Of a stretch of 64,000 bases of DNA, positions 19,912-62,300 are shown piece by piece. Source of the DNA: Nitrososphaeraceae archaeon (GTDB lineage Archaea; Thermoproteota; Nitrososphaeria; Nitrososphaerales; Nitrososphaeraceae); assembly GCA_035297365.1 (NCBI GenBank), contig DATGZA010000011.1, forward strand, positions 87,609-151,608, written 5' to 3'. The position numbers and the translations under genes are program-made. Each line of letters starts with the position of its first letter. Position 1 is the stretch's first letter. The notes beneath the pieces were generated by a model, which had not been told where the DNA came from, made no database searches, and saw only the letters and a list, made by a program, of their open reading frames with translations.

Positions 19912-20036
19912 TTTCTGATAGTTGGTGCTTGTATGTCTTGATTCCTGATATCTGTAATATTCTTGTATCAAATGCCTGTTGGCATTATTGCAATCTCATT
20001 TATTTTTTTCAGAACAGTTTCAAGTTTTTGGTGCAT
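19912..20036 (-). pseudogene. tyrosine-integrase N-terminal stub (copy A)
   Basis: MHQKLETVLKKINEI/(frameshift)NNANRHLIQEYYRYQESRHTSTNYQK, homologous to stubs at 49971 and 62164; ATG ~60 bp from core at 20097. Confidence 0.55.
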
Positions 20037-20096
20037 TTACAGGTCTCTCCTTCCTGTTTTATTACAATATTCATGTATATGAAACCAGATATAGTA

Positions 20097-20220
20097 CGGG
20101 CTAGTAGGACTTGGAATTTGGCTTGTAATTGGGATCGGCTTTCTGTTATTTTATCTTACATTTTTAATATGAAGAGTTGACTAATCACAAAATATTAATT
20201 CAGTTAATGGTACTCGAACC
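20097..20220 (+). repeat. degenerate att-like site core-RB with extended tail
   Basis: CGGGCTAGTAGGACTTGGAATTTGGCTTGTAATTGGGATCGGCTTTCTGTTATTT...ACTCGAACC. Confidence 0.7.
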
Positions 20221-20405
20221 GTTATTTATCAAATGAGGGTTCAGTATCAAGTATTGATATATTTATTCAAATAATTTTGAATGTACCAGACACAGTGGGG
20301 CTCTTCACAGTTCCAAGATTCTAATTTTCTACAATGCTGTCAATTATCATTATTTTTGCGATATGGGAAGAAACATTATAAAACAAGCCTTTACAGCTTC
20401 TATTT

Positions 20406-21035
20406 TCAATACTCTTTGTATCTGAAGCACTTTATCTCATGATCATTTACCATACCAACTGCCTGCATAAAGGCATAGCAGATGGTTGAGCCGACAAATT
20501 TGAAACCACGTTTAAGCAAGTCTTTGCTCATTATAACCGATTCCTTAGTGTTAATTGGAATATCTTTAATAGTTTTGATCTTGTGATTGATCGGCCTACC
20601 ATCTACAAACTGCCAGATATAGACATCAAAGGAACCGAATTCTTTTTGAATTTTCAAAAATGCATTAGCATTTTTGATTGTAGATTCAATCTTCAACCGA
20701 TTACGGATAATCCCAGAATCAGTAAGAAGTCGATCTATTTGTTCCTTCCCATAACGAGCTATTTTGTACGCATGGAAATCATCAAACGCCCTGCGGTAGT
20801 TATCACGCTTATTCAAAACGGTTTGCCAAGTAAGACCTGCTTGGGCACCCTCAAGAATTAGGAATTCAAAGAGTGTGCGGTCGTCATGTACTGGTACACC
20901 CCATTCCTTGTCATGATACTCAATCATAAGAGGATTTTTACATCCTACCCAACTACACCGTCTTTTGTTGTACATTCCACTTTCATTAGAGAAGGTATAG
21001 TTACTTGTGGATATAGCGTTCGACGATTTGTCCAT
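20406..21035 (-). CDS. tag: DNA-3-methyladenine glycosylase I
   Basis: RCSW...YHDKEWG, LEGAQAGLTW, IIRNRLKI, FMQAVGMVNDH. Confidence 0.95.
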   Translation of the reverse strand: MDKSSNAISTSNYTFSNESGMYNKRRCSWVGCKNPLMIEYHDKEWGVPVHDDRTLFEFLILEGAQAGLTWQTVLNKRDNYRRAFDDFHAYKIARYGKEQIDRLLTDSGIIRNRLKIESTIKNANAFLKIQKEFGSFDVYIWQFVDGRPINHKIKTIKDIPINTKESVIMSKDLLKRGFKFVGSTICYAFMQAVGMVNDHEIKCFRYKEY

Positions 21036-21167
21036 TTGCTTTAAAATAATATATCAATAATATTAAATTTATTATGTAACCTACAAGTATTATGTTAGCA
21101 CTATATTTCTAGGATGTAGTCAACTAGTTTGTTTGGATAATAAATTCATAATTTTGATTATCTTGAA

Positions 21168-21238
21168 GATGTATCAGAGCCTTGATGTTATACGGGCTCA
21201 GAGGATAGTGAACTGATTTTGACACAATTTTGTAGTTC
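21168..21238 (+). repeat. att-like site L1-core-RA
   Basis: GATGTATCAGAGCCTTGATGTTATACGGGCTCAGAGGATAGTGAACTGATTTTGACACAATTTTGTAGTTC. Confidence 0.88.
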
Positions 21239-22104
21239 AAAAATAATATAATAATAAAGTGACCAACTGATTTTCTCAAATAAAATTTTTCTGATAACTT
21301 CAGTGTCCGTAAGCTATAAAATATCTTGTATATTTACAAGTTTTCTAAATAATCTAAACCACAATACCTGAAGCAAAAATTATTTGTAATAAATAAATTT
21401 TCTCAATTATTATAATATAGTTCCACGATTAATATTATTTTTTAACTATACTGATCTGCGTCAAATTCAATTTTTCTTCGACCAATTTATCCTCCAACAA
21501 CAGATCGGGCACTCGAACCTCGAAGCAATAGTTCTACAGTATTATTCATCATTTACAGATTTCACAAATAAAATATCTGCATATTTCAGAACAAAATGAT
21601 TCAACTTGAATATGAGAAATTATTTGTTTGCCGAAATTGATAATTAGAAAAAAGAAGCTAGTTGATATATAAACAAATATCTATTAATTTCATATATCGT
21701 GTAAATATTTTCAATTCAACTATCTGTCAAAATCTTAAATAAAATCTAAACTACTCTCTGATCTATTATAATGTTCATTATATGTATTAATGAAGTGTTA
21801 CGAATGTAAGGTTGTTAGTCATTCTGGCAGGTATACTTTTGTTTTCTCTTATAGGTCTACTATCAGCTACAGCAATAACACAAACAAACAATAATTATAG
21901 TAGAACATCCATATGCACAAGTTGCTAATAACAATGAAAATCTCTCAATTTTATTTTCCTTGGAAGCAAAACCAGTTGGGAACAACCAAAATAATGTCAC
22001 CCAATTAATCAATCAACATAATAACTCTAAAATGAGAGATATAGAATCTGCATTCAACAATACACTAGTTTCTAAGAACCAATTTAAAAATGAAGCCAGC
22101 TTTT

Positions 22105-22153
22105 TATCTTCTAGTGATAATAAAAGATATCTTCTAGTGATAATAAAAGATAT
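22105..22153. repeat. 23-bp tandem duplication
   Basis: TATCTTCTAGTGATAATAAAAGA x2. Confidence 0.8.
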
Positions 22154-22240
22154 TTTGGTCTTCAGTTATTTATTTTTAATTATATAATATTTGGAACATA
22201 AACTAAACTTAGATTAGTTAATTTCTTTGTTGATATTCGG

Positions 22241-22576
22241 TTCTTCTCCAAGGTACAAAATACTGTATGCTTTATTATCTTGTATTGTAAAGATAAATAG
22301 ATTATTAATGAATAATGCATTGTTATCATTCTAATTCTCTTTATCATCCTCTTCATCTTTATCATCCTCTTCATCTTTATCAACGGCTTCATCTTTATCA
22401 TTAGATGAGAAAATAGAGGACAAATCAGGATTGTTTGCAGCAATAGGAGAAAGATTAGGATCTAATATTTCAAATGAATTAGCCATCATTTGAACATTAG
22501 GCAAATGTTTATCATAATCTTTTTCTTCTCCAAGGTACAAAATACTGTATGCTTTATTATCTTGTATTGTAAAGAT
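22241..22576. repeat. 54-bp exact direct repeat (22241-22294 and 22523-22576)
   Basis: TTCTTCTCCAAGGTACAAAATACTGTATGCTTTATTATCTTGTATTGTAAAGAT twice. Confidence 0.9.
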
Positions 22577-23758
22577 GTCGGATCCTTTTACTTTTGAATT
22601 ATCTGCAGTGTTCGTTCCATTATAAACTAGTTTGTAGGCTGATACTTTCTTGACTCCAAGAGTTGCAGTAGGATCATATTCCAAGATATTAAATTTAGTA
22701 TTCTTTGAATTAATTAATTCATTAATTTTTTGAAGCGAAAATTGTTCTAATGATCCTTTTATTTGTTGTGTTTCGCCATTTCCTGTTTGTTGTAATGAAG
22801 AGCTAACAGGTTGGACACTTACTAGAATATTAGCTTTTATCTTTTTGTCTGTTGCAAGACTTTGTAGTGGTGATGTTGTTATTCCGTCCTGCGATTCAGC
22901 TAAACTAAACATAACGGGTATACCACCTTTGTCATTTCCTGCTTTTGTCCAATTAGCAGGATATTGCATTTTAAAGCCCAATTCAGGATTTTCATATACT
23001 AACAAGTCAGATTGTTGAGCTGGAGGCGGACAGTTTGGATTATTTGGGTCACCTTCAGGTGGACAAGGTGCCGGTGGTAGGGGCGGTGGTGGTGGTGGTG
23101 GTGGCACGTCTGGGACGCATTTGTTTGTGGTAGTATCAACGTGTTGACCTGCTAGACATTCTACTGGCGGTGGTGGTAGACAGTTTCCATTTGTTGATTC
23201 ACCTTCTGGTGGACAAGGTTGTGGCGAAATATCAGTATCCGATTCGGGCGCATCCAGAACTGATGCTTGCATGTCGATATCATTACCAATGGCAGCAGAA
23301 ATATCGTCAGAAGGTTGTTGTAATGTTGGAGTAGTGGAAATGCTTTCTTTTATCCCTTCATCATTGATACTACTGCTACTCTCACTTATTCCTGTTTCTA
23401 CATTATCATTTGGATTTTCAGGTTCAAATGGGATAGAAAAACCAATTTCTGGTTGATTTGATGCCTCCTTATCATCATCTTCTTTCTCTTTATCTTCCTC
23501 CTCCTCTTGTTCTACTTCCTCTTGTTCTACTTCCTCTTGTTCTACTTCCTCTTCACCAAAATCATCTTCTTGTGAATAGGCTAATGATAAGAGGTTCCAG
23601 TTGACTATTGCCGAAAGTGACTCCAGATATGCGATAACATTTTTTGAACCATCCGGATTAAAATTTATTGATGCTACAGAACTTGTTACGGTAAATAATA
23701 TTGAAAGAATAAAAAATGTTATTGTTGTAAAATATTGTAAATTTTTAACATTCTTCAT
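22331..23758 (-). CDS. secreted PsbP-like protein with acidic and Pro/Cys-rich linker
   Basis: Signal peptide, EEVEQ repeats, poly-Pro, YENPELGFKMQYPANW PsbP-like domain. Confidence 0.8.
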   Translation of the reverse strand: MKNVKNLQYFTTITFFILSILFTVTSSVASINFNPDGSKNVIAYLESLSAIVNWNLLSLAYSQEDDFGEEEVEQEEVEQEEVEQEEEEDKEKEDDDKEASNQPEIGFSIPFEPENPNDNVETGISESSSSINDEGIKESISTTPTLQQPSDDISAAIGNDIDMQASVLDAPESDTDISPQPCPPEGESTNGNCLPPPPVECLAGQHVDTTTNKCVPDVPPPPPPPPLPPAPCPPEGDPNNPNCPPPAQQSDLLVYENPELGFKMQYPANWTKAGNDKGGIPVMFSLAESQDGITTSPLQSLATDKKIKANILVSVQPVSSSLQQTGNGETQQIKGSLEQFSLQKINELINSKNTKFNILEYDPTATLGVKKVSAYKLVYNGTNTADNSKVKGSDIFTIQDNKAYSILYLGEEKDYDKHLPNVQMMANSFEILDPNLSPIAANNPDLSSIFSSNDKDEAVDKDEEDDKDEEDDKEN

Positions 23759-24439
23759 TTACATTAAATAGTAATGACAATGACAAACTAAAATATATAG
23801 TTATTTCACATAATTTTTTATATATTATTCAATATATAAAAGATTTAACTAAAATATCATAACATTTAATAACTTTTTATAAAATTTCCATCTATAAGTT
23901 TCGCTACATCTAAATACACTATAATATTCTATTCTATCTCGTATTCAATAATTCAAATAGAAATCAGTCTAGTATTCCATAACGAAAAACCTAAATAAAA
24001 ATAATTAAAATTTGGACATAAATTATTATATGAAAAACAGAATATTATGATTATACAAGTTAAAAATATAAGATTTCTTTAGGCAGAAAATCTGAATATA
24101 GTTTACCACTTAATTCCAATTCATTTAAAAAAATTTTCGGCGCCGAAAAATTGTTATATTAGTAGTGTTATTAAAAAAATTTATTTAAATTTCATGCTAT
24201 ACTCATCTTTTACTAAAACAATGACAATTGTAAAATTCTATTTACATATTTACATGATATTATATTATAAAATTAGATATATTTATAAATGAAAGGACTC
24301 ATTCGATGAAATCATTTTAATAAGATTGTAATTTTATCTATTCAATGGAAACTAATATAATACATTTTTATTCTTATTTAATTGATATTTATTTTACAAA
24401 TATTGCTATTATCTTAAAGACTTATGGAAGTTTTCAAGA

Positions 24440-25630
24440 TTGAGTCGTTTTTCTCATAAAGGAATAAGATTTTCAGGTGACTCCATAAAAAGTTGTATCT
24501 GTTTTATTGACGTTATAGATTCAACAAAAAATACTTTGAAATTTAGTGATTTAAAAGATACAAGAAAATATTACTCGACATTTATTAACTCCATAAATGA
24601 AATAGTAAAAAAGTATAATGCAAAGATTATAAAAAATATTGGCGATTCATTACTATTTTATTTCCCTGATACTGCTGATACTATGAAGATTTCAAGGTTT
24701 GTAAAGGCATTAGAATGCGGTTTGGAAATTCTTGAAAATCGTCAAAATGTTAATGATAAAGTAGCAGCTGAAAACTTTCCGCCATTTAACTATAGGATAA
24801 GCATGGATTACGGAGTGGTTGAAATAGCCTTATCAGGCGAGTACAATCAATTAGATATTTTTGGATCCGCAGTAAACCTATGTGCCAAAATTAATATTCT
24901 ATCTAACCCAAATGAATTAGTAATAGGAGACAATTTGTACAGAATCCTAAAAGCTTATTCACCTATTGTCGAAAAGCATTACTTGTTTAATTTTTCTAAA
25001 GATTTTACTGTTTTAAATGGTTGTGCAACTTGCTCTCAAAAGGATGTATGCAAATTGTTTCGTGTATCAGGAGAGTATATGACTTTAGAGGATACTAAAT
25101 ACTCGTGCTATATTCTTAAAAGAAAATATCCAAAAAAATTATCCCATAAAAATCAATATATTTCCAAATTGAATAATACAAGAGGTCCTCAATTTTCTGT
25201 TCTTGCTGGTCAGAGAGATCAGGTTGAATATGAGAAAGAATATAGAGATTATAATAATATAAAAAAAATTATTCTGGTTGATGATGATCCTGAAGTTTTA
25301 TACACTTTCAAATCATTTTTGACTGAATTTAAGTACAATGTTAATTCCTTTACAGATTACGAACAGGCATTACAATACATGAGATCAAATCCATTCTATG
25401 ATAATCTTTTGATAATAACAGATATTGTATTAAAAAAACTGAATGGATTGCAGTTTTATCTACAGGCCAAAACTATTGATCCGACTATAAAATTTCTTTT
25501 TATTACGGCATATGATATTGTAGATGAGGTAATATCCGTAATCCCTGGACTGAATAAGAGTGATATAATTAGAAAACCTATAGAAAAAAATAGGTTTGTG
25601 AATAAGGTAAATTCACTACTACCTATTTAG
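24440..25630 (+). CDS. class III nucleotidyl cyclase-like domain fused to C-terminal receiver domain
   Basis: FIDVIDST, KNIGDSLL, DIFGSAVNLCAKI; IILVDDD...TDIV...FITAY...KP. Confidence 0.85.
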   Translation: MSRFSHKGIRFSGDSIKSCICFIDVIDSTKNTLKFSDLKDTRKYYSTFINSINEIVKKYNAKIIKNIGDSLLFYFPDTADTMKISRFVKALECGLEILENRQNVNDKVAAENFPPFNYRISMDYGVVEIALSGEYNQLDIFGSAVNLCAKINILSNPNELVIGDNLYRILKAYSPIVEKHYLFNFSKDFTVLNGCATCSQKDVCKLFRVSGEYMTLEDTKYSCYILKRKYPKKLSHKNQYISKLNNTRGPQFSVLAGQRDQVEYEKEYRDYNNIKKIILVDDDPEVLYTFKSFLTEFKYNVNSFTDYEQALQYMRSNPFYDNLLIITDIVLKKLNGLQFYLQAKTIDPTIKFLFITAYDIVDEVISVIPGLNKSDIIRKPIEKNRFVNKVNSLLPI

Positions 25631-26060
25631 TATTTTACATTTTGAGCACTAATTATGTGAGGGTAGGTCATAATTCAATAAACAAATATCGTTTCACTAA
25701 AAATAAAAAATTCTATGAGGTAATAGACAGAAAATTTTTGAAATTTTTTATCTACTGTAAGATGAAATAATTTTAAATCGGATAAGAAAATAAGATTCAT
25801 TTCATTAATATTTCAAGAAATTTTTAAAAATTACGTTATAAATATTCTATTTGAACATAAAATATTATCTGAAATCTCATAAATACCGTCATAGTTTTGA
25901 TAAATTCTTTCAACGTCATTTTTGGGGAATTACAGATGACGATAGAAAAAATACAATTCCAAATCTTATTTACAAAAAATATCCTGATTTATTTAGTAAT
26001 TGAGGTTATATTGATCGTTTGGAATTACAGTTGCAATTAATAATGACTTTATTATACAAA

Positions 26061-27872: not shown

Positions 27873-27955
27873 ATCTGCTTGGCCCCATTGACTAAATGGG
27901 CTCAATAACTAAAACTTAAGCTTGGAATGCTTCGAGTTTGACATGTAATTGGAAT
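27873..27955 (+). repeat. att-like site L6(hairpin)-RB
   Basis: ATCTGCTTGGCCCCATTGACTAAATGGGCTCAAT...GCTTCGAGTTTGACATGTAATTGG; matches 32745. Confidence 0.75.
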
Positions 27956-28522
27956 ATGTTTTTTAAGATTTAAAATTTGACTTTTCGTATTCACCAATAA
28001 TGTGACCACTGTGAAACCTATTAGAAGAATCAAGGGTTTAAAGAGAAAAAGACTAGTTTTTGATATTGTAATTCAATTAGGAGGTAAAGTACAAAGTTCA
28101 CAAAGGGAAAAGAGATATCAAGACTGGTTTATTGGATTTACTTGTCTATTATGAAGCACCAGAAGGAAAGAGGGACAAAGTAAAGACAAGGTTTGAATTT
28201 ATTAAAAATAAATCCGGTAGGGTTATAATACAAAATCAGTAAGTAACTAATAACAATACTATACTATTGTTACTACTACAAATATTATATAGTAATATTT
28301 CAAATAGTACAAATACTATTAGTAACATGATAAAAAGTATACATGAATAACACCTGTTGTTACGGTTGCAATACTCCGATATACTGGAATATAGAGAAAG
28401 GAGAGTATTGGGAACTATTCCAATGTAAAAAACATATCTGTTCTTACCTGCAGAATAAACCAATAACACACTAACTAACTATCACTGCCATAGAAGCTAG
28501 ATCTATCTTTTTGTTAGTGGTT

Positions 28523-28640
28523 ATTACGGTGTTATTTACGAATTTAATATATCTGTGGTTAGAAGGAACATTATCTAATGTTCTAATGTTCTATCATTCT
28601 GAGTCATTAACTATAGTAAGGATAGCAATTGATCTTCAAG
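28523..28640 (-). promoter_or_regulatory. motif C leader, copy 2 (start codon decayed to ATA), abutting att-like site
   Basis: TACGAATTTAATATATCTGTGGTTAGAAGGAACATTATCTAAT...CATTCTGAGTCATTAACTATAG. Confidence 0.75.
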
Positions 28641-28642
28641 TT

Positions 28643-29293: not shown

Positions 29294-29423
29294 GATTTCA
29301 CTTTCTACCTTAATATCATTTTCTATTCTTCTTATAGTCAATAATTCAGAATGATAGGATAATACAATATAAGATAATGTTTCTTCTAACCTTCGATATA
29401 ATAAATTCGTATTCAAGAATGTA
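29294..29423 (+). promoter_or_regulatory. motif C leader, copy 3
   Basis: GATTTCACTTTCTACCTTAATATCATTTTCTATTCTTCTTATAGTC...ATATATAAATTCGTATT before ATG 29424. Confidence 0.8.
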
Positions 29424-29900
29424 ATGAGCAATAGTAATAACAACAGAATGATAGTATTTGCTTGCATACTGGGAGCAATACTAGCAACAAGTATACTGGC
29501 TCTAAACCCATCAACAATTACAAATGCACAAGCAATGCCATATGGCAGTGAAGATTATGACTATCGATATTCCTATGGTGATCAATATGGAGATGGTCGC
29601 AACTATTATCAAGACGAGAATAGATATAGTTATGATAATAACCATCAAAAAAAGAGTTCTCACACAGATACCCAGAATATAAAGTGTGTAAACAGTAACA
29701 TAAATGTAAATGGAATAGATATTGTAACTAATATCAAAATAGAAATAAATGCAAACCTATATCTAGAAAAATGTGCTGCATACTTTACAGAAGAAAATCA
29801 AAAATTTATGTATCAAAGAAAAATAATATATTCTCAAAGATTTTCAAATGAAATAATGTATGTTAGTTCTTTTATACTAGTAGTTAAAACTACAAATTAA
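29424..29900 (+). CDS. secreted CxNxNxNVNG-family protein, family homology ends after NVNGID (truncated or chimeric)
   Basis: N-terminus nearly identical to 48108-48887 up to KCVNSNINVNGID, then unrelated sequence. Confidence 0.65.
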   Translation: MSNSNNNRMIVFACILGAILATSILALNPSTITNAQAMPYGSEDYDYRYSYGDQYGDGRNYYQDENRYSYDNNHQKKSSHTDTQNIKCVNSNINVNGIDIVTNIKIEINANLYLEKCAAYFTEENQKFMYQRKIIYSQRFSNEIMYVSSFILVVKTTN

Positions 29901-31245: not shown

Positions 31246-31310
31246 TTTATTTAAATAGTATTGTTCAAATTATTATTTTGATAATATTATGAAGAACTAT
31301 TATTTCTCAT

Positions 31311-31362
31311 GTAGTCCGGTACCGATAATCGCGATACGGCGTATTGGTTTAGTGAAAGACAT
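31311..31362 (-). pseudogene. start of Rossmann-fold (3-hydroxyacyl-CoA dehydrogenase-like) gene, truncated
   Basis: MSFTKPIRRIAIIGTG preceded by GAGGAG Shine-Dalgarno; breaks inside the GxGxxG motif. Confidence 0.5.
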
Positions 31363-32910: not shown

Positions 32911-33240
32911 CTTATTCATCGAATATGGGTGGTTTCTATTATTAAGTATAAATATTTAACATTAAAATATTATTTTTCGTATTTCACCAAAAGATATTCT
33001 AGATTAAAATCACTTGTATTATTTACATCGTTGTAAGCAGAACCAAAGAGAGTTTTCAATCATGGTACTTTTAAAGTCTTGGTATACTAGTAAATTTTTT
33101 TAAATCCATATCTGATTATTTTTAATATCGATATTCACATAAATTATTTTAAATATTGATTTGATATCAAATTAATGGCAAAAATCAGAACAAATTATAA
33201 AAAAATATCTGTTATAATAATTTTATTATTATCTTTATTT

Positions 33241-35241
33241 TTATCCAACTACCATGTTGAACAAAGATGATATTCCATCATTGTCACTCAGGTCAATAAA
33301 GGGGTTGAATGTCAGGCCGTTGTTGTTACTTGCTCTAAAGAAGATATCTGTATCAACACCATTACTGTTATCTCTCCAAGCAACATAGACATTGTTGCCA
33401 GCGACTATCATCTGTTGTAAATCCGATATTCCATCATTGTCACTCAGGTCAATAAAGGGGTTGAATGTCAGGCCGTTGTTGTTACTTGCTCTAAAGAAGA
33501 CATCATCGTCTCCACCATTACTGTTATCATTCCATACAACATATACATTTTTTCCAGAAGAAAGTATTTGCTTGTCGTCAAATTCTTTAGAGTTCCCATC
33601 ATTGTCACTCAGGTCAATAAAGGGGTTGAATGTCAGGCCGTTGTTGTTACTTGCTCTAAAGAAGATATCTCGATCACCACCATTACTTTGGTCATTCCAT
33701 ATAATGTATACATCATTGCTAGACACAAGCATTTTGGGTCTAAATGAATTTCCATCATTGTCACTGAGATCAATGACAGAATTGAATGTGAGGCCTATGT
33801 TATTACTTGCTCTAAAAAAGACATCAGTATCTCCTCCATTAATTTGATCCCATACAACATAGACATTGTTTCCAGAGGCAAGCATCTGTATGATTGATGC
33901 ATCACCCATAACGTTAAGATCAATAAATGGGTTGAATGTCAAGCCATTGTTGTTACTTGCTCTGAAGAGTAAATTACCACCGTTGGGAATATCTTGATGC
34001 CACACGACATAGACATTGTTGCCAGCAGTAACAATCTGTGGTCTACCAGTCGCTGGTTCAGGGGGACTGCTGAGTTCTATAACAGAATTGAATGTCAGGC
34101 CGTTGTTGTTACTTGCTCTGAAGAGGAAATCATCACCATTGCTTTCGTCACTCCACAAAACATAGACATTATTGCTAGAGACAAGCATTTGTGGACTAAA
34201 GGAGTCCCCATCATTATCACTAAGGTTAATAACAGCGTTGAAATTCTGTCCGTTGTTGTTACTTGCTCTAAAAAAGACATCTATATCGCCACCATTAGAT
34301 CTATCATTCCACAAAACATATACATTATTGCCAGAGACACGCATTTGCTGATCAGATGGTGATCCATCACTATCACTTATATCAATAAAAGCGTTGAAAT
34401 TCTGTCCGTTGTTGTTACTTGCTCTAAAGAGAATATCGTTAGCGCCACTACTGTGATCTACCCATGAGACATAGATATTATTGCCAGAGACGAGCATTTG
34501 AGGATTACCAGAGTTTCCATCATTGTCACTCAGGTCAATAACAGGGTTGAATGTCAGGCCGTTGTTGTTACTGACTCGAAAGAAGATATCTACATCACCG
34601 CCGTTACTCGTATCTTCCCAGACAACATAGACATTGTTGCCAGAGACGAGCATTTGCGGTAAGAAACCCGAATCTCCATCATTGTCACTCAGGTTAATAA
34701 CAGGGTTGAATGTCAGGCCGTTGTTGTTACTTGCTCTAAAGAAGATGTCAAAATCGCCACCGTTAGTGTTATCTCTCCAAGCAACATAGACATTATCATC
34801 TTCTGGTTGTTGTTCTACTACTATGCGTTGATTATTCAAATTCAAATTTGCACAGATGTTTACAAGATTTTTATTTGTAACGATATTATTATTATCATCG
34901 TTATGTTTATGATCTTTTAAATTATTATTGTTAGTATCAGCAGAGAAAGTATCTATATCAGACTCTACTCCATTTACATTCAGGTTATCGTTGCTACAGT
35001 CAATAATTTGTTGATTGTTATTTCTTGTGGTTGGAATAGTAAAGGTAGGATAATAAGCATCTTCTTTTTCACTATAGTTATCCTCAACTGCTATAGCATC
35101 ATTCAAAACTCCAAGAGTGGATAAATATGAAATAGGAGATACTGAAAATATATTTCCAATTGTACTAAGAGACAAAATTGTTGTTAGAAATATTATATGG
35201 ATTTTCCGGTGTTTGCAACTACTATTACGATACATATACAA
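33241..35241 (-). CDS. secreted protein with CxNxNxNVNG-type domain and 10 BNR/Asp-box-like repeats (sialidase-like propeller)
   Basis: IDCSNDNLNVNG...KNLVNICAN; 10x NVYVxW...FFRASNNNGLTFN. Confidence 0.85.
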   Translation of the reverse strand: MYMYRNSSCKHRKIHIIFLTTILSLSTIGNIFSVSPISYLSTLGVLNDAIAVEDNYSEKEDAYYPTFTIPTTRNNNQQIIDCSNDNLNVNGVESDIDTFSADTNNNNLKDHKHNDDNNNIVTNKNLVNICANLNLNNQRIVVEQQPEDDNVYVAWRDNTNGGDFDIFFRASNNNGLTFNPVINLSDNDGDSGFLPQMLVSGNNVYVVWEDTSNGGDVDIFFRVSNNNGLTFNPVIDLSDNDGNSGNPQMLVSGNNIYVSWVDHSSGANDILFRASNNNGQNFNAFIDISDSDGSPSDQQMRVSGNNVYVLWNDRSNGGDIDVFFRASNNNGQNFNAVINLSDNDGDSFSPQMLVSSNNVYVLWSDESNGDDFLFRASNNNGLTFNSVIELSSPPEPATGRPQIVTAGNNVYVVWHQDIPNGGNLLFRASNNNGLTFNPFIDLNVMGDASIIQMLASGNNVYVVWDQINGGDTDVFFRASNNIGLTFNSVIDLSDNDGNSFRPKMLVSSNDVYIIWNDQSNGGDRDIFFRASNNNGLTFNPFIDLSDNDGNSKEFDDKQILSSGKNVYVVWNDNSNGGDDDVFFRASNNNGLTFNPFIDLSDNDGISDLQQMIVAGNNVYVAWRDNSNGVDTDIFFRASNNNGLTFNPFIDLSDNDGISSLFNMVVG

Positions 35242-47101: not shown

Positions 47102-47144
47102 CGGGCTCGGAGGGCTTCGAGTTTGACATGTAGTTGGGATCGGT
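47102..47144 (+). repeat. att-like site core-RB (consensus copy)
   Basis: CGGGCTCGGAGGGCTTCGAGTTTGACATGTAGTTGGGATCGGT. Confidence 0.9.
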
Positions 47145-48107: not shown

Positions 48108-48887
48108 TTAAGGTCTCAATGGTGGATTGTCAAAACATTCTACATCGGGAGTGACGAAACCATTTCCACTATTTATTCCAAATACTGTAATATTCCATCC
48201 AGTATGAGTAGCCAACGGTTCACTTGATATTAGTAGAGGTATTGCGGGAAGTAAACCTGGTTCGGGGATGCCAATTTGCCCAACTTCAAAACTTCCACTT
48301 AATGCTGTGTCGCCTGGGTCACAATTCGCTACTGCACTACCAAAATCACGAGTAAAAATCCTGTCGTTAGTTTCACCTACATTAGTATAGACGTTAGTAG
48401 GGTTTATTGTGCTAGGACCTTGTGGAAGCTCATCCTTTAACTGTTCGTTGTCATTAGCATTTACACAAACATTTACTAGATTTCTGTCAAAGTTTATTCT
48501 ATCTGCAAGTCCGTTACCATTCTCTGTATTTGCTGCTTCTGGACCTCCTTCATTTGCTGCTCCTAAGGCAGTATTGTCGTGAGGTATCTCGGTAACATCT
48601 ACACCATTTACGTTGACGTTACTATTTCTACAATTTATTTTCTGGATATCTCCATAACTTTTTGAATCTTTTTTATCGTAACTATACCTATTGTCGTCTT
48701 GATAATAGTAGTTGCTATCATCTCCATATTGATCACCATAGGAATGTCGATCATCATAATCTCCACTGCCATATGGCACTGCTTGTGCATTTGTAATTGT
48801 TGACGGGTTCAGAGCCAATATACTTGTCGCTAGTATTGCTCCCAGTACAGAAGCAAAAACTATCATTCTATTGTTACTATCGGTCAT
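48108..48887 (-). CDS. secreted CxNxNxNVNG-family protein with C-terminal A.C..GD.ALSG domain
   Basis: Signal peptide, Y/D-rich segment, QKINCRNSNVNVNG...DRNLVNVCVN, C-terminal CFDNPPLRP. Confidence 0.85.
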   Translation of the reverse strand: MTDSNNRMIVFASVLGAILATSILALNPSTITNAQAVPYGSGDYDDRHSYGDQYGDDSNYYYQDDNRYSYDKKDSKSYGDIQKINCRNSNVNVNGVDVTEIPHDNTALGAANEGGPEAANTENGNGLADRINFDRNLVNVCVNANDNEQLKDELPQGPSTINPTNVYTNVGETNDRIFTRDFGSAVANCDPGDTALSGSFEVGQIGIPEPGLLPAIPLLISSEPLATHTGWNITVFGINSGNGFVTPDVECFDNPPLRP

Positions 48888-49023
48888 TACACTATTAAAT
48901 ACGAATTTAATATATCTGTGGTTGGAAGGAACATTATCTAATCTTGTAATATTTTATCATGCTGAATTATTGACTATAAGAAGAATAGAAAATGATGTTA
49001 AGGTGGAAAGTGAAATCCTAGCA
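48888..49023 (-). promoter_or_regulatory. motif C leader, copy 4
   Basis: Aligns with copies 1-3, 5, 6; directly upstream of ATG 48887. Confidence 0.8.
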
Positions 49024-49087
49024 TTACAGCAACCAATACAGGTCCACGAAAGACCCAAGATAAGAAATAATATCAGCATGACTAGCA

Positions 49088-49186: not shown

Positions 49187-49363
49187 TTAATCTTCAAAGA
49201 AAGGTCTATGTTGAACATCGAAACCTGGAGATATATTTGCAAATTGCATTATTGTGATCATTTTGCATATTTTGTCCTGTAACTCTGAATGTTCAATGAA
49301 TTTCTTTTTACAAATAGGACATTTAGTTTCTTTTCCTACATTCATAATGATACTATCGCTCAT
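49187..49363 (-). CDS. small zinc-finger-like protein (58 aa) behind motif C
   Basis: Hand translation MSDSIIMNVGKETKCPICKKKFIEHSELQDKICKMITIMQFANISPGFDVQHRPFFED*. Confidence 0.5.
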   Translation of the reverse strand: MSDSIIMNVGKETKCPICKKKFIEHSELQDKICKMITIMQFANISPGFDVQHRPFFED

Positions 49364-49499
49364 TACATTGTTAAATACGAATTTAATTTATCTAAGGTTA
49401 GAAGGAACATTATCTGATCTTGTATTATTTCAACATTCTGAATTATTGACTATAAGAAGAATAGAAAATTATGTTAAGGTAGAAAGTACAACCCTAGCA
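49364..49499 (-). promoter_or_regulatory. motif C leader, copy 5
   Basis: TACATTGTTAAATACGAATTTAATTTATCTAAGGTTAGAAGGAACATTATCT...GTTAAGGTAGAAAGT. Confidence 0.8.
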
Positions 49500-49970
49500 C
49501 TGCTCCACCCAACCTGGTAAGTTCCCACGAAGAAAGAATATGGCTAGAATAATAAATTAATTAATGTATAATTCTAAAAAAGGAATAAGAATAAAATTTT
49601 ATCAAAGAATCTATAACTAATGTTTTTATTAATACATATATATGATGAAATCAGCGATTAAAAAGTTGTCCACCTGAAAGAGTTGTCCTGATACATAAGA
49701 TGAAAAAGTTTTGCAGGAAAAATACCGGAGTTATTTATACTGGTATTATAGTTATTCAATTTGATCTAAATTGTTACTCATTTTATGTCATCTTTAATTG
49801 ATCAAATAATATTTTTATAATTCAAACTTATTGATTGTTATCATGTTAAAGAATCTTTATCGTATTAGTATAATGTAATATTGGATATAAAAAGAATAAT
49901 GATAATCTTGACCATATATTAAAGATATATTATTCTATTATAAAAAATCGTTTCCAACATACATAAAAAT

Positions 49971-50098
49971 ATCGTTTTGATACCTTTCAGAAGTTCGCTG
50001 AGATACTAATATTCATAAAATTCAATGAGCAAAGTAGCATTATTCCTGTTTGCAAGTGCATCTACTTTTTTCAGAATATTTGCTAACTTTGTTGGCAT
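49971..50098 (-). pseudogene. tyrosine-integrase N-terminal stub (copy B)
   Basis: MPTKLANILKKVDALANRNNATLLIEFYEY..(frameshift)..RTSERYQND; resembles thaumarchaeal integrase N-termini (recalled, not searched); ATG 59 bp from core at 50157. Confidence 0.65.
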
Positions 50099-50145: not shown

Positions 50146-50202
50146 CAATTGGTTGACGGGCTCGGAGGATTGTCAACTGTTTTTGACACAATTTTGTAGT
50201 TC
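50146..50202 (+). repeat. att-like site L3-core-RA (consensus copy)
   Basis: CAATTGGTTGACGGGCTCGGAGGATTGTCAACTGTTTTTGACACAATTTTGTAGTTC. Confidence 0.9.
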
Positions 50203-50280
50203 AGAATAAGTATATACTTCAAAGAAGAATGAATGATTTTTAATATGGTTTATAATAATTTCATCTTACTAATAATGCTA

Positions 50281-51627: not shown

Positions 51628-51900
51628 CTATGTAGAATCTTTGTTTATAACAAGCATCTCTTTTGTTGTTGCTACTATTACTTTGCCATGTGCTTTTCTC
51701 CGTTTGATTCTTTCATAAAATGTTCTCATGTGATGGTCATATCTTCCTGCGGATAATGAACACTGTACTAGTATCCATCTCAGCAAACGAGAACCATGTT
51801 TGGCGATTCTATCTGTTTTTGTTTTTCCAGATGATTCTCTTGTTGATGGTGCAAGTCCTGCATAACTAACAAGTTTCCAGGGTGTTGCAAATAATACCAG
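51628..51900 (-). mobile_element. IS110-family transposase C-terminal remnant
   Basis: KLVSYAGLAPSTRESSGK...KHGSRLLRWILVQ...FYERIK...KVIVA. Confidence 0.85.
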
Positions 51901-52152
51901 GCTATTGAGTACATGGATTCTAAAAATGATCAATTAATTTTAGTATTATTTTTCAATCTGAAGACATTGATTTGTTAAAATAAATCTTTTAAAATTAAAT
52001 AATTCATTAAAAAATATTCAATATATAGTCATTACTTCAGTTAACAACAAATATTCAATATTTTTTAAAAAAATTTTAACTGCCAAAATATAACATCATA
52101 TGAAATAATCATTACAATATAGTTAAGTGATAAAGATAGAACTACTATTTGA

Positions 52153-56069: not shown

Positions 56070-56155
56070 ATTTTTTCTAATAACTTTAAGAAAAAAGTAC
56101 AGTTTAAATTCAAGAATTAAAGTAAAATCCTAAATTTTAATAATGGATACACACT

Positions 56156-57257: not shown

Positions 57258-58928
57258 ATGAAATACATTTTCTGGGTATTTTTTCTTCCCGCAATATTCT
57301 CAGGATTGACAATAAATTTTAATCACATTTTATATGCTCAAGATTCATCTTTTAATAATACAATTAACAAAATTAATGAAGAACAATATTCTCAATCTCA
57401 ATATATTAATCTTAGTTACAAATCATATCCGTTTCTAATATTAAATGGAACCGACTTTATAGATATTTCTAATAATGATACACTTTCTCTTCATCATTTT
57501 TCTATTGGAGTATGGGTTAATACCAATCAATCTACTTTATTAGAACCTGCTCATATTGTAAATAAGGGCGGATTTAATACCGATACAAAAGGTGAGAATA
57601 TGAATTATGGCCTTTGGTTCTCTATAGGTGGAACAATTTCTGGAGGATTTGAAACGGAATCTGGAATAGATTTTGAGGTAAAGTCAACTGCAAAATATGA
57701 TGATGGAAAATGGCATTATGTTTTGTTATCTTATGATGGATCTTTATTAAGGCTTTATGTAGATGGAAAACAAGTATCTGATAAACTTACCAAAGGAGCA
57801 ATACCTGATACTACCGGAGACCAACCATTAAGAATTGGAGCAAATTCACTAGACGAAAGTAAATTTTTTACTGGTTATCTAGATGAAGTTAGAATTTGGA
57901 ATAGAGGATTAACAGATTCTGAAATATCAAAAATATACTCTAATAATACTTTTAGTACAATAGGACAGATCATATTTCAAGATTTTAAGGGTATTGTTAT
58001 TGATAGAAAGATAGAACCTCTAGATACTAGTAAAACAACAATACCAATAACAGATAACACTTTTAATATCGCAGTTGCTTCAGATTGGGGATGTGGTAAG
58101 CATGCTAGAGAAACTGCAAAAAATATCCAAAGTATGAATCCAGAAATTGTTATTGCAGTAGGTGATCTAAGTTATGAAGAATCTTCTGATTGTTGGTTTG
58201 AAATAATACAACCATTTATGTCAAAGATGACGATATCGATGGGAGATCATGAATATAGTGACACTCCTGGTGGTATAACAGGTATAAGTAATCAATACCT
58301 GAAGCCTTTAAATTTAACAAAAACATATTATTCTTTTGATATAAATAAAGTACACGTTACTGTCATAGATCCACATATTGCTTATAACTCTACTTCTGAT
58401 CAATATCAGTTCCTTGAAGAAGATTTACGTAATGCTTCTTCCAATCCAACAATAGACTGGATATTTGTTGTAGAACATACACCGATGTACACTTCACCTT
58501 CAAAACATCATGGCTATGCTACAATCAGAGATGTTTTTCATCCTTTGTTTGACAAATTTGATGTCGATTTAGTGCTTACTGCCGATAACCATAATTATCA
58601 GAGAACTTTTCCACTACAATATAATAACACTGGTAATAGTTCCAATCCCGTCATAGTAGATAGAAATAAAACTAGTTACAATGATTACTTAGGACAAATT
58701 TATCTAATAACCGGGACTGCAGGAAAATCTCATTATGATATTCAACAACAAGCACCTTTTGTTGCTAACCAGAATGATGATCAACATGGTTTTCTAAATA
58801 TTGATATTAATACTAACAACACATCACTGACTGGAACTTTCATTTCTAATGGAAATAATGATACTTTAGCAAGTAATAATATAAAAAATGAAATATTAGA
58901 TCAATTTACAATTTCGAAAACGAATTAA
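57258..58928 (+). CDS. secreted LamG domain plus metallophosphoesterase (purple acid phosphatase-like)
   Basis: DGKWHYV...LDEVRIWNRGL; ASDWG, GDLSY, GDHE, HTPMY, DNHNYQR. Confidence 0.88.
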   Translation: MKYIFWVFFLPAIFSGLTINFNHILYAQDSSFNNTINKINEEQYSQSQYINLSYKSYPFLILNGTDFIDISNNDTLSLHHFSIGVWVNTNQSTLLEPAHIVNKGGFNTDTKGENMNYGLWFSIGGTISGGFETESGIDFEVKSTAKYDDGKWHYVLLSYDGSLLRLYVDGKQVSDKLTKGAIPDTTGDQPLRIGANSLDESKFFTGYLDEVRIWNRGLTDSEISKIYSNNTFSTIGQIIFQDFKGIVIDRKIEPLDTSKTTIPITDNTFNIAVASDWGCGKHARETAKNIQSMNPEIVIAVGDLSYEESSDCWFEIIQPFMSKMTISMGDHEYSDTPGGITGISNQYLKPLNLTKTYYSFDINKVHVTVIDPHIAYNSTSDQYQFLEEDLRNASSNPTIDWIFVVEHTPMYTSPSKHHGYATIRDVFHPLFDKFDVDLVLTADNHNYQRTFPLQYNNTGNSSNPVIVDRNKTSYNDYLGQIYLITGTAGKSHYDIQQQAPFVANQNDDQHGFLNIDINTNNTSLTGTFISNGNNDTLASNNIKNEILDQFTISKTN

Positions 58929-59160
58929 TCAACTACTAACCAGTTTTTAGCAATATCTTTTTTTATTGTATAATTGTTGATAGCTTAATATCCTTGTCTA
59001 ACTATTCCAAGCTATAAAGGATGTCGATTGGTATATCAAATTATTCAACTTGATTGTATATTACGAAGTACCTGAAGGTAAGAGAACGAAGTTAAGACAA
59101 CAAATAACAGCATAAAAAACGAGCTCTTCATATACTAATAAGACTAATATAGAGTAAATA

Positions 59161-59418
59161 ATGACGACAGAATTCAGTTATCATTATTTGCCATATTGTT
59201 TTTCTGTTTTCTTTCTCTTTTTCTCTATGTTTTTATTGTCAGTCCATGGGGAAATTGAACAAGAAGAAGACTTTTCAAACATGGATATATATGGAAACAT
59301 ATTTTACAACAATATCGAGGACGAAATCTTGGACACTGAACCTCCCGTTCCAATGAATACCACAGAACTGATAGAAATAGGAAAGAACCTTACAATTACC
59401 GACAACAATACAACCTAA
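59161..59418 (+). CDS. small hypothetical protein with N-terminal hydrophobic segment
   Basis: 85 aa ORF. Confidence 0.4.
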   Translation: MTTEFSYHYLPYCFSVFFLFFSMFLLSVHGEIEQEEDFSNMDIYGNIFYNNIEDEILDTEPPVPMNTTELIEIGKNLTITDNNTT

Positions 59419-59569
59419 TAAGTGGGAACGGAAAAAAACTGCATTTTTAGGGACTCAGAATACGGGTAAGTATTGGTACAACAACAAAAATATAATATTT
59501 TTCTTATATTGTAGAAGAAGGCAATCAAAATAATTATACTAAAATACTTGAAAAACATATCTTATATCC

Positions 59570-61084
59570 ATGACAAAACAGACTACTGCAACATTTATTA
59601 TTTTAGTATCCTCAATTATCACAGCAATTTTTGCAGTAAATACTTTTTTCCTTCTTCCATTCCAAAACGCATTTGCACACCATATACTAAAAGAAATTGC
59701 TGTAACGGAAAGACCTATGAAAATTTCTTTAGAAGAACCGTTATTGTTTGTATCAAATTTAGGCAAACCAGTAATATCTATTATTAGTACAGTTTCTGAT
59801 AATGTAGTAGGAACTATTAACACCACAAATGGTGTAATGGATGTTGAAGGTATTATTGATAAAAATAAAGTTTATGTTGCTACATTTCAGACTGGAGAAA
59901 TAGAAGTATATGATCTTACGACAAAAGAGTTGATAAAAAAAATTCCTCTTCCTGGTTCTACTATACAATTTCCAACGAGATTAGCAGATACTGTATTGGT
60001 AACTTCAACAGTGATTACTGGAGGATCATCCCTTGACTATAACCCTAATAATGAGCTATTATATATTGCAAACTATAACACTGATGAGATAATAGTAATA
60101 GATACTAAAAATAATGATACAATAGTAAAAACAATAGATGTTTCTCCACATCCCATGGATCTAAAGGTAGACCCTGTTACCAATCAGGTCTTGGTAACAA
60201 GTTTTGCATCCACAAAGTTGACGTTTATTTCAGGAGATGCAAATGAGATAACAGGAACAGTAGATACGGGTATTTCTCCTTGGGGTATTGGTATAGATAA
60301 TCGTGAACATCTTGCATATATTGCTCATCATAATAGTCCCTATATTGCTGTAGTAGATATTTTAAACAAAAAAGTAATTAAGCAAATACCTATTGGTTTT
60401 GAGGCTCAATCAGTAGTGGTAGATACCAATGAACACAAGGTATATGTATCATTTCATGATATTGATAAAATTGTAAAAATTAACGGAAATAACAACGAAA
60501 TTGAGACAGTGATACAACTAGATGGTAGAATACCAAATGATATAGCTGTTGACCCAACTTCCCACAAGTTATATGCTTCTATAAAATATTCTAATAATCT
60601 TTGGGTTATGGGGCCAGAAGCATATTCTGTTAATATTCCTGTAGTAACAAAAGAACCTCCAATTTTGTATGTGGATAATATTATAGTAGATGGTCAAGAT
60701 GTTCGAGTATTAAGTCCCTTATCCATGGATACTGTTGCTGCTGCTGTTGCCACCTCTGCTGGGGAAAATAATATCGTTTCTCCATATTTAACATCATTTG
60801 CTATTTTAGACAGTGAAAATAAAAGCTTAACAATGTATGTAACATCCCCAGATGGCGGAAATTTACAAATAAAAATGCCAAAAACAATTTTAGATTCTAT
60901 GATTGAAACAGAAGAAGAAGGAAAAGGAAATGTAACAGGTTCTAAATTCACGGTCTTAATAGATGGAGTAAAAACAAAATTTGAAGAAATAAAACAACAA
61001 CAAAAAGATACAACAAAAGAAATCTCAGTATTTATTCCAAAAGGGGATAAAAAAGTAGAAATTATAGGAAAAGATATTTCCTAA
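59570..61084 (+). CDS. secreted YncE/YVTN beta-propeller with C-terminal thaumarchaeal PEFG-associated-like domain
   Basis: Repeated P.xI.VD...K.YV blades; FTVLIDG...IPKGDKKVEIIG. Confidence 0.8.
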   Translation: MTKQTTATFIILVSSIITAIFAVNTFFLLPFQNAFAHHILKEIAVTERPMKISLEEPLLFVSNLGKPVISIISTVSDNVVGTINTTNGVMDVEGIIDKNKVYVATFQTGEIEVYDLTTKELIKKIPLPGSTIQFPTRLADTVLVTSTVITGGSSLDYNPNNELLYIANYNTDEIIVIDTKNNDTIVKTIDVSPHPMDLKVDPVTNQVLVTSFASTKLTFISGDANEITGTVDTGISPWGIGIDNREHLAYIAHHNSPYIAVVDILNKKVIKQIPIGFEAQSVVVDTNEHKVYVSFHDIDKIVKINGNNNEIETVIQLDGRIPNDIAVDPTSHKLYASIKYSNNLWVMGPEAYSVNIPVVTKEPPILYVDNIIVDGQDVRVLSPLSMDTVAAAVATSAGENNIVSPYLTSFAILDSENKSLTMYVTSPDGGNLQIKMPKTILDSMIETEEEGKGNVTGSKFTVLIDGVKTKFEEIKQQQKDTTKEISVFIPKGDKKVEIIGKDIS

Positions 61085-61478
61085 ATTTTTTATTTTGTGC
61101 TATAAAAAACACAAAAATTAGAATAATGATAAAGGTTTAGTGATCGGCTTTTGCTTTCCTAGCATGTTCTTTAAAAAAATGAAAAGAAGGAAGGAATAAA
61201 GTTATGGCAATAACCTCATTTTTTTCAGTTTATGTATTTTACTTTCATAATGTAAATAGACAAATAAAAGAAAAAGAAAAGGATCAAATTTCCTTAATTA
61301 ACCTGTCAGAATGAATATTCAAGGTTCTAATGCTAGCACTGGGTTGTATTAGTTAAGTAATTGTAGAAGGTATTTATGTTTGAAGACTAAAGTAGATGAT
61401 ATTTTATAATGGTTCAAATTTATATTGAGTTACTATCCCTGTGATACAAGCCAGAACTAGCTGTATTTTATTGCTCAT

Positions 61479-61613
61479 TACATTGTTAAATACGAGTTTC
61501 ATATATCTGAGGTTGGAAAAAAATATTATCTAATGTTCTAATATTTCAAGATTCTGAATTCTTGACAATAAGAACAATAGAAATCATGTTAAGGTAGAAA
61601 GTGAATCCTAGCA
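61479..61613 (-). promoter_or_regulatory. motif C leader, copy 6 (downstream gene decayed)
   Basis: TACATTGTTAAATACGAGTTTCATATATCTGAGGTTGG...ATTCTGAATTCTTGACAATAAGAACAATAG...GTTAAGGTAGAAAGTGAATCCTAGCA. Confidence 0.75.
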
Positions 61614-61655
61614 GCGCAGCAAGCAACTAAAAAGATTTATTTCAAAAATGAAAAA

Positions 61656-62120
61656 TTATTTTCTCATCTTAACATACATCAATAACATCGACAATGGTAT
61701 TACAAATGCCTGTTGACTTATTTTTGTTACAGCATCTTTCCAGTTAACAGTATTATCAATAATCCAGTTATCAAATCCATCTGGTATCCATATACCGGTT
61801 GTCTTTGATATGTAATAAATAACGGCAATAACTACTGTTGTAAATAAGATTATGTAATAAGGTAATGTACGATTTCTATAACGTACTACAAAAAACGTAG
61901 ATATTGCATATATAATTGCAATGCCTGCAAACAATACAAACTCTGCTCTTTGTTCCGCTGATTTTTCTATTAATCCTTCTGTCTTTGATTCTTCTGATTC
62001 TTGATATTCATGAATGGCATTATATGCATAAACTACTATATTTGGAACCATTAATACGATAAAGAGAACTAGTAGAATATTGGAAAGTTTTTCCTTTTGT
62101 ATTTTTATATCTTCTTTCAT
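61656..62120 (-). CDS. membrane protein
   Basis: 154 aa, about 4 TM segments. Confidence 0.65.
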   Translation of the reverse strand: MKEDIKIQKEKLSNILLVLFIVLMVPNIVVYAYNAIHEYQESEESKTEGLIEKSAEQRAEFVLFAGIAIIYAISTFFVVRYRNRTLPYYIILFTTVVIAVIYYISKTTGIWIPDGFDNWIIDNTVNWKDAVTKISQQAFVIPLSMLLMYVKMRK

Positions 62121-62163
62121 TGTAAATATGTTGGATAATTAATCATATAAAAATTGGGTTATC

Positions 62164-62292
62164 ATCGTTTTGATACCTCTCAGAAGTTCGTACGGATTTC
62201 AAATATTCATGAAATTCAAACAGCAAATTTGCATTATTTCTGTTAGCAAGTGCATGTACTTTTTTAAGAATATTTGCTAACTTTGTTGGCAT
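62164..62292 (-). pseudogene. tyrosine-integrase N-terminal stub (copy C)
   Basis: MPTKLANILKKVHALANRNNANLLFEFHEYLKSVRTSERYQND; homology to copy B ends at the same base. Confidence 0.65.
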
Positions 62293-62300
62293 CTTCCTGA

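Follow-up and report, generated by a model that had tools for sequence, protein, structure and literature searches.

Krupovic et al. (2019, PMC6563490) describe integrated elements of Thaumarchaeota that occupy short att sites in tRNA genes, with a median site length of 17 bp. Repeated use of one site yields arrays, and the tandem cases in the portion of that survey drawn on here are two casposons and two proviruses. The present analysis concerns a 64,000-nt stretch of contig C11 (DATGZA010000011.1, positions 87,609 to 151,608; hereafter the window) from the 110-contig assembly of a soil ammonia-oxidising Nitrososphaeraceae archaeon (GCA_035297365.1). The window belongs to a tandem array, more than 100 kb long, in which att-bounded cargo cassettes follow one another at tRNA-Arg. 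Within it lie three short stubs of an integrase gene (int), here called A, B and C, which were singled out in an original prediction made from the sequence alone. The best overall explanation, and in our judgement a probable one, is that the stubs are decayed int fossils in the tRNA-Arg cassette array.

The array resembles the elements surveyed by Krupovic et al. in that a tyrosine recombinase is linked to integration in the 3′ portion of a tRNA gene, att repeats measure only 12–19 nt and the cargo is metabolic, transport-related and stress-related. Unlike the elements covered in that portion of the survey, a single contig here carries at least 20 core-bearing junctions within ~100 kb, and nearly all of the cassettes lack int. 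Among the publications listed in searches on tandem or integron-like arrays in ammonia-oxidising archaea, none describes such an array in its title or abstract opening. The array probably belongs to a known kind, namely tRNA-anchored tandem integrated elements with decaying integrase genes, and is larger in scale.

All three homologous stubs are present on the minus strand where the original prediction had placed them. Stub A (19912–20036) runs from the int ATG to +125 and belongs to a subfamily beginning MPQKLETVL, with L104 and L108 as full-length parents; against L104, its homology spans −81 to +125. Stub B (49965–50098, originally 49971–50098) runs from the ATG to +134 and belongs to a subfamily beginning MPTKLANIL. 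Stub C (62163–62304, originally 62164–62292) is of the same subfamily as B and covers int positions −12 to +130. Stubs B and C are 87% identical across 141 nt, and their 24-nt end motif occurs twice in the window as against no occurrence expected from 100 shuffles.

The description of the stubs as stopping after about 42 codons holds for their homology, which ends after ~42–44 codons, but not for their reading frames, which end elsewhere. Stub A is frameshifted; its open reading frame (ORF) ends after 22 codons and the motif TSTNYQK lies in a different frame. Stub B, which is 92% identical in DNA to its parent L002, carries an in-frame TAG as codon 31 as well as a 1-nt deletion. The frame of stub C is open through an in-frame fusion with the initial 42 codons of a GC-rich DUF1326 gene (Pfam), giving a 92-aa ORF at 62143–62421. 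Similarly, B and C were said to lose homology at the same base. This is correct for the two compared with each other, as they diverge after ...CAAAACGAT, and incorrect against their closest full-length parent L002, where homology ends at +134 for B and +130 for C. Stub A ends at +125 against L104.

A further fragment, D (31264–31316, minus strand), was overlooked in the original prediction. Its sequence, from a third subfamily, corresponds to int +85 to ~+140. A 16-codon ORF with a Rossmann-like N-terminus (MSFTKPIRRIAIIGTG) immediately precedes it, and the start of an LtrA-like ORF follows 18 nt downstream. Fragment D together with the ltrA start has matches at five congener loci; the same two junctions were read in four of these, and in those four the upstream neighbour differs from that in the present genome. 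Most probably, the stubs are what is left of the 5′ parts of integrase genes after deletion of the rest, the products of ordinary gene decay and not of a new recombination site.

The assignment of the stubs to integrase genes had been based on resemblance, and it is borne out by full-length homologues. A 43-aa stub query, with matches accepted at E ≤ 0.01, found matches in 28 of 61 related genomes, which include 21 of the 24 further members of the genus, and in none of 24 genomes from the other 19 families of the order. The best match, 86% identical over the stub, lies within a 436-aa ORF of a congener (L002). Further full-length ORFs have 479 and 448 aa, and full-length homologues as a whole span 427–479 aa. 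Judging by record titles, the family is confined to Nitrososphaeraceae. Its members carry a four-cysteine, zinc-ribbon-like motif at the C-terminus and a long helical tail.

Profile matches of the parents to known recombinases are weak. Two parents scored 26.3 and 28.1 bits against Pfam Phage_integrase (PF00589), for which the cut-off is 27.1, and 5 of 12 family members matched this profile at E ≤ 0.01. The NCBIfam models for XerA, XerD and XerC matched with E 1e-6 to 2e-3, XerA_Arch having E 1.2e-6, and all scores lay far under the curated cut-offs. Searches of Protein Data Bank (PDB) sequences with a single parent and with a 12-sequence profile returned no recombinase; their hits, all at E > 0.2, were ribosomal proteins of the zinc-ribbon type. 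When 48 full-length proteins were aligned, R180, K208, Y295-x-x-R298, W320 and Y330 proved invariant or at least 90% conserved, with Y295 invariant and R298 at least 90% conserved. The catalytic role of each of these residues is a putative one, assigned by position.

A first AlphaFold model, built from a 12-sequence alignment, had a pLDDT of 57.5 and left the catalytic domain unresolved. It is superseded by a model from the 48-sequence alignment (pLDDT 81.7), which has the fold of a helical core-binding domain and a catalytic domain. Foldseek comparison of the model with the PDB gave 55 matches at E ≤ 0.001. Those listed are all tyrosine recombinases with a probability of 1.00 each, among them XerA (the best, 5hxy, E 3e-6), lambda Int, XerH, Cre, IntI and Tn1549 Int; their TM-scores are low, at 0.23–0.41. 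Taken at the level of sequence and modelled fold, the stubs are shown to be N-termini of predicted tyrosine integrase genes.

Classical archaeal integrases of the pNOB8 type have the consensus R...YxxR...Y, and SSV-type enzymes have KxxR, according to the part of PMC8371274 drawn on here. The parental family shares with the pNOB8 type the R...YxxR...Y pattern, an att site outside the ORF and a gene that is whole when integrated: at L002, L005 and L011, ORFs of 436–479 aa begin ~58 nt past tRNA-Arg(TCG). By its YxxR pattern and external att site, the family is thus classed as a predicted member of the classical pNOB8 type. It differs from the pNOB8-type enzymes of that source in that the predicted family is specific to Nitrososphaeraceae and carries the C-terminal four-cysteine motif and helical tail. 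SSV-type suicidal integrases are split into int(N) and int(C) (PMC8371274; see also PMC7253208). The stubs resemble the SSV case in that a short N-terminal piece of int remains at an element border. The int(N) of SSV1 is also of similar size to the stubs. They differ from it in the YxxR pattern, in the att site outside the ORF, in the lack of any int(C) in the assembly, in the lack of tRNA identity at the break and in their illegitimate joints, so the distinction from SSV-type splitting drawn in the original prediction stands.

No intact integrase lies in the window. A tblastn search of the whole assembly likewise found no intact member of the stub subfamily, only degraded copies at C11:60114–60464, C63:534–920 and C78:10463–10636, and this absence may reflect an assembly gap. 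At C12:33265–34702 there is a more remote integrase-like gene, which has 23% identity to L002 across residues 98–431. It lies ~400 nt downstream of tRNA-Thr(CGT), which may thus be a second tRNA-linked integration site.

The cores that separate the cassettes are copies of the 3′ end of tRNA-Arg(TCG). In the window, the core corresponds to the final 12 nt of this tRNA, and one repeat family has 19 nt in common with it. Upstream of stub A, a degenerate core with 2 mismatches lies at 20097–20108 (minus strand), 60 nt from the ATG; the core upstream of B, at 50157–50168 (minus strand), is exact over all 12 nt and lies 58 nt from the ATG. These distances agree with the ~60 bp originally estimated for the two stubs, both of which read away from the core. 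The proposed likeness to int beside att in a tRNA island is also upheld by the congeners, in which int begins ~58 nt downstream of tRNA-Arg(TCG). Among nine int loci scanned with ARAGORN, five have a tRNA directly upstream (tRNA-Arg(TCG) in three, tRNA-Ile in one and tRNA-Met in one, the last two at int genes of other subfamilies). Stub C has no upstream core, its homology beginning at −12. In the window itself, ARAGORN found no tRNA gene and Rfam no family over its gathering score.

Contig C11 holds 11 core copies with at most one mismatch, every one on the minus strand, and the core pattern read backwards gave no match as a control. Core-bearing junctions number 20 and extend from 40.4 kb to 143.4 kb of the contig (~100 kb); 17 of them end before the int start codon. 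The cassettes measure 0.5–15 kb and have their own promoter-like upstream regions. Their Pfam-annotated genes include major facilitator superfamily (MFS) transporters, alcohol dehydrogenases, Kdp, Nramp, MgtC, ferritin and the small heat-shock protein HSP20, besides others. Cassette A carries hsp20 at 19039–19674 (minus strand) and is closed by a core at 18656–18667 (C11:106275, minus strand), to which its match in the related genome G014 extends. Cassette B is closed by a core at 47102–47113 (minus strand), and the equivalent P arm and core lie past the homologous flank at G010:C327.

The P arm left of the core (50146–50225, and other P arms of family D5) contains an inverted repeat, TGTCAA ... 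TTGACA, with GTCAAC after the core. In the D5 P arms, a copy of the acceptor-stem segment GAGCCC can pair with GGGCTC 11 nt downstream. Both features are candidate integrase binding sites, as read from their sequence.

In G017, tRNA-Arg(TCG) is followed by int and then by two more cores, 1275 nt apart. Contig C6 of the present assembly has two cores on the plus strand (200–213 and 1476–1489) at a spacing of 1276 nt, which matches that in G017. C6 could represent the stretch of the array nearest the tRNA gene, split off by an assembly gap.

The genome G014 holds blocks of the array at 89–95% identity, in which orientation is kept, order is changed and block ends fall at cores. On G014:C36, for example, the window blocks 28481–27929, 14204–13683 and 19847–18659 adjoin one another. 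For such a change of order, integrase-less cassettes must have moved or cores must have recombined with one another. It looks like integron-like shuffling of integrase-less cassettes, or shuffling in the manner of cis-mobilisable elements (CIMEs), or else core–core recombination. The reshuffling is independent of the stubs and is the more interesting feature of the region.

Comparison with relatives identifies the DNA to which stubs B and C are joined. From the break onwards, the flank of B is 85% identical to G010:C327:4049–4357. A full int C-terminus, 90% identical to L002, is located ~3.2 kb upstream of that site, and a P arm and core follow beyond the site; B therefore corresponds to an internal deletion of ~4.4 kb in such an element. 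The two partners have GAT followed by a T run in common at the junction. The cargo after stub C is a 154-aa ORF (61656–62120, minus strand) with no Pfam match at E ≤ 1e-4, and its own upstream region begins at the break. The downstream flank of C is 98% identical in G017 and 95% in G014, the matches beginning at the break; unrelated DNA precedes it there, and TG is common to the partners at the join. The 1.5 kb upstream of this cargo in G017 contain no int and no core, and C can therefore not be called a deletion inside one element. In both cases, the stub is joined to the native upstream DNA of a cargo gene with 2–7 nt of microhomology, and the joints of B and C show no core or tRNA identity, in keeping with the original remark that the breakpoint is not tRNA-like. 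These joints look like illegitimate, microhomology-mediated deletions, a mechanism suggested by the form of the junctions.

Stub C is additionally rearranged on its upstream side. A GC-rich piece at 62305–62567 (minus strand), in which the tail of one gene precedes the initial 42 codons of the DUF1326 gene, is joined to it at int −12. This piece has ~52% GC as against ~30% in its surroundings, is 90% identical to a locus ~1 Mb off on the same G017 contig and has no second copy in the present assembly. The DUF1326 gene continues intact past the joint point in G017 and G001. Contigs, and contigs only, of independent sequencing runs were compared; pieces of X5 and X6 that cross 62163/62164 with only 15 letters on one side were not counted as bridging. 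A contig of X4, a run of the source's study, bridges the joint between DUF1326 and int. In contigs of X5, X6 and X8, the normal int leader precedes stub C, which represents the unrearranged form. The X8 contig (2409 nt) has the same 3′ joint, spanning 61600–62304 and then running into the 5′ leader of int in the way that B does. Hence the DUF1326 fusion arose later, through a local rearrangement.

Orthologous cassettes retain int remnants of unequal length. The hsp20 cassette of G014 is 91% identical to cassette A and has int only to +36 (36 nt), and G017 has an int pseudogene upstream of hsp20 (profile positions 128–354). Such unequal lengths fit erosion and do not fit a fixed site. The break falls within helix H38–54 of the N-terminal domain in the AlphaFold model and not at a domain border.

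The near-coincidence of the B and C breaks may have a local cause. In the L002 int gene, only two places can form hairpins with a stem of at least 6 bp and a loop of 3–8 nt, and the strongest, at +120 to +136, has a 7-bp stem and a 3-nt loop at +127–129. The left arm and loop of this palindrome remain in C (62164–62173, minus strand) and in B (49970–49979, minus strand). The C joint is inside or beside the loop; that of B is inside it or among the initial bases of the 3′ arm. Both breaks thus fall in the loop or within 5 bases of it. The same subfamily includes L024, which breaks at +125, and L022, in which a ~30-nt tandem duplication has its joint at +125/126. Short palindromes attract the end points of deletions and duplications, and the palindrome at +120 to +136 is a likely fragile spot behind the near-coincidence of B and C. 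A family-wide palindrome is ruled out: within codons 37–50, a stem of at least 6 bp occurs in 1 of 48 parents (L002), and 8 others have stems of 5 bp only. AT-richness was also considered as the cause of a hot zone and is insufficient, as codons 41–55 have a GC fraction of 0.28–0.32, like other low-GC stretches.

The truncation points of copies in relatives place the stubs in a wider distribution. The homology ends of 93 truncated or degraded copies were mapped to the closest of 46 parents, and 85 were usable. They range from before the start codon to +1382: 5 lie before the ATG, 8 at 0–124 nt from it, 12 at 125–150, 14 at 150–175, 3 at 175–200, 6 at 200–250, 4 at 250–300, 8 at 300–350, 6 at 350–425, 8 at 425–600, 5 at 600–1000 and 6 near full length. 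Ends below +125 are few because the copies were found with the 43-aa query. For the 66 ends in the range 125–1200, a 1/x² model fits (chi-squared 5.4, 4 df, p 0.25) and a uniform model is rejected (p 2e-31). By our own derivation, the 1/x² form follows if each remnant is recut at a rate proportional to its length. An apparent break of L022 at codon 43 was rejected, being the ~30-nt tandem duplication, after which the gene continues to about codon 55. Scattered truncation points, which the original prediction itself took to speak against a specific breakpoint, are largely what the tabulation returned.

The original prediction proposed that the first ~130 bp of int hold arm sites required in cis. 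The stub would then be a functional attP arm by which integrase-less cassettes are mobilised in trans, and the break would be the outer edge of this arm. Cassettes are indeed shuffled between two species, so some agent moves them, but the shuffled cassettes common with G014 at 91–95% identity (27929–28481 and 13683–14204) carry no int DNA whatever. Ends at +125 to +175 (26 of 85) outnumber those at 0 to +124 (8 of 85), a shortfall of short remnants that the 43-aa query leads one to expect. Among the junctions of C11, the 17 of 20 that end before the ATG would lack the arm altogether, as would most of it be lacking from the G014 form of cassette A, which stops at +36. A TRTCA-like motif does occur both in the P arm (GTGTCAAAAAC) and at int +117 to +126 (GTATCAAAAC); the latter overlaps conserved Y/H-Q-N/K codons, so coding explains the motif. 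Nor is there extra conservation at synonymous sites, where codon identity is 0.35–0.53 in codons 1–43 as against 0.36–0.58 elsewhere and third-position information is not raised. Furthermore, the N-terminal domain aligns with the core-binding domain of XerA from residue 27, where the XerA_Arch alignment begins, and no separate arm-binding domain is seen. A retained arm is on these grounds improbable.

The same prediction envisaged a second specific breakpoint inside int that swaps the enzyme body for cargo, whether by an SSV-like split or by integrase-catalysed recombination at a pseudo-core. The joints of B, C, L024 and the L022 duplication all fall within +125 to +134, and the int sequence before the break (CTTCTGAG) is, by eye, weakly like the core (CCTCCGAG). 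Breaks up to 9 nt apart (A +125, C +130, B +134), in a gene whose 85 ends spread over its whole length, do not behave like a programmed site, and the junction partners are ordinary cargo upstream regions without core-like sequence. The int(C) partners that a split would leave are missing: a tblastn search of the assembly (97% complete), for which the 436-aa parent served as query, returned 9 segments, none of which starts near codon 44. In relatives, int(C)-like starts seemed to cluster at codons 59–65, but the cluster was discarded, the three G010 matches compared each being contiguous with an N-terminus across a variable stretch. The family moreover has YxxR and not the KxxR of SSV-type enzymes, and Pfam Phage_integr_3 (PF16795) matched none of 12 members at E ≤ 0.01. 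A second site is accordingly very improbable. Less credible still is a role of the stubs as genes for a small functional protein, in which an N-terminal integrase peptide would serve as regulator or inhibitor. Stub C has its open 92-aa frame, and about 30 of some 115 matches in relatives, counted by eye, lie in open frames of ~45–62 aa. The C frame is a chance fusion with the DUF1326 fragment that is not found in the X5, X6 and X8 contigs, and A is frameshifted and B both interrupted and frameshifted. The break also cuts helix H38–54, leaving no folded domain, and the sequences after the break differ among copies.

Some observations weigh against the reading of the stubs as decayed fossils. 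The 45 nt past the break of stub A have no match in the relatives searched, leaving its original partner without a counterpart there. The tRNA-Arg(TCG) gene was not found in the 110-contig assembly, so the anchor of the array is deduced from congeners. The hairpin cannot explain A and D, because their subfamilies lack the palindrome. The count of truncation points overstates the number of independent events, since the genomes are related to one another and have certain joints in common (L077/L082, L033/L035 and L039/L042), and where the closest parent is distant a break is placed only to within some tens of nucleotides. Within C11, 4 of 6 int fragments, D included, end at +125 to ~+140; under the 1/x² model, four of six within 16 nt has p 0.015–0.07 and three of six within 10 nt p 0.07–0.19. 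This clustering is unusual and not compelling, and it was picked out after the fact. Finally, the excess at +125 to +175, which takes in those 26 of 85 ends, could reflect a function beyond the reach of these tests.

If the stubs are decayed fossils, the following history is proposed. Small integrative elements would have inserted successively at the 3′ end of tRNA-Arg(TCG), each insertion by a classical pNOB8-type integrase duplicating the 12–19-nt tRNA end as a core and setting int ~60 nt downstream of it, reading away from the core. Successive insertions would have built the array to more than 100 kb. Illegitimate, microhomology-mediated deletions would then have taken most of int and joined the remnant to the promoter region of a cargo gene. 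A shorter remnant presents a smaller target for the next deletion and would outlast longer ones, so that remnants should accumulate just above the recognisable length and most junctions be left without int DNA. The near-coincidence of B and C would arise from both breaks falling at the loop of the strongest hairpin in the parental gene.

On this history, the stubs mark the dispersed cores of the window as att sites derived from the tRNA-Arg end and indicate that the integrase-less cargo cassettes descend from autonomous integrative elements. They would further record the loss of the enzyme gene by microhomology deletion, with short remnants lasting longest. The array suggests a route by which soil ammonia oxidisers may gather accessory genes at one locus, in this case transporters, dehydrogenases, Kdp, ferritin and a heat-shock protein. 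In addition, the 43-aa N-terminus together with the core makes a cheap query for similar arrays in other genomes.

Two further systems invite comparison with the array as a whole. CIMEs, known from Streptococcus, are att-flanked, integrase-less, cis-mobilisable derivatives of integrative elements. Like them, the cassettes are att-bounded, have lost the recombination module and stand in tandem with related elements at one site; they differ in their archaeal host and in the much larger number of units, and any mobilisation of them is putative. Integrons have been reported in Archaea (bioRxiv 10.1101/2022.02.06.479319). The array shares with integrons the arrangement of cargo cassettes in one orientation between recombination sites, in an order that varies among relatives. 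It has no IntI-type integrase beside an attI, however, its separators are copies of the tRNA 3′ end with P arms and not folded attC sites, and its cassettes are 0.5–15 kb long with promoter-like upstream regions of their own. An Rfam scan of the window returned nothing, dedicated attC models not having been run. It is conceivable, if rather unlikely, that the array is a tRNA-anchored archaeal functional analogue of an integron, with cassettes excised and reinserted in trans by incoming pNOB8-type integrases; the stubs would then mark cassettes halfway between autonomous element and passive cassette, and the palindrome would be a built-in weak point that hastens the loss of int.

The window has some other notable features. 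A 666-aa ORF at 33241–35241 (minus strand) contains ~10 tandem repeats of ~156 nt (33203–34816) with weak BNR/Asp-box matches. A 101-aa ORF at 51628–51933 has only the C-terminal part of an IS110-family transposase domain (Transposase_20) and is a further truncated mobile-element gene within the array. A multi-copy sequence family is present at 48502–49036, 49339–49512, 61432–61626, 28478–28636, 29294–29723 and 1836–2265, and recurs on ~17 contigs of the genome at 66–91% identity. Each copy consists of an upstream region of ~150 nt and the first ~100 codons of ORFs without a Pfam match, such as those at 48108–48887 (minus strand) and 29424–29900 (plus strand). The family represents either paralogous genes with a conserved leader or a mobile element.

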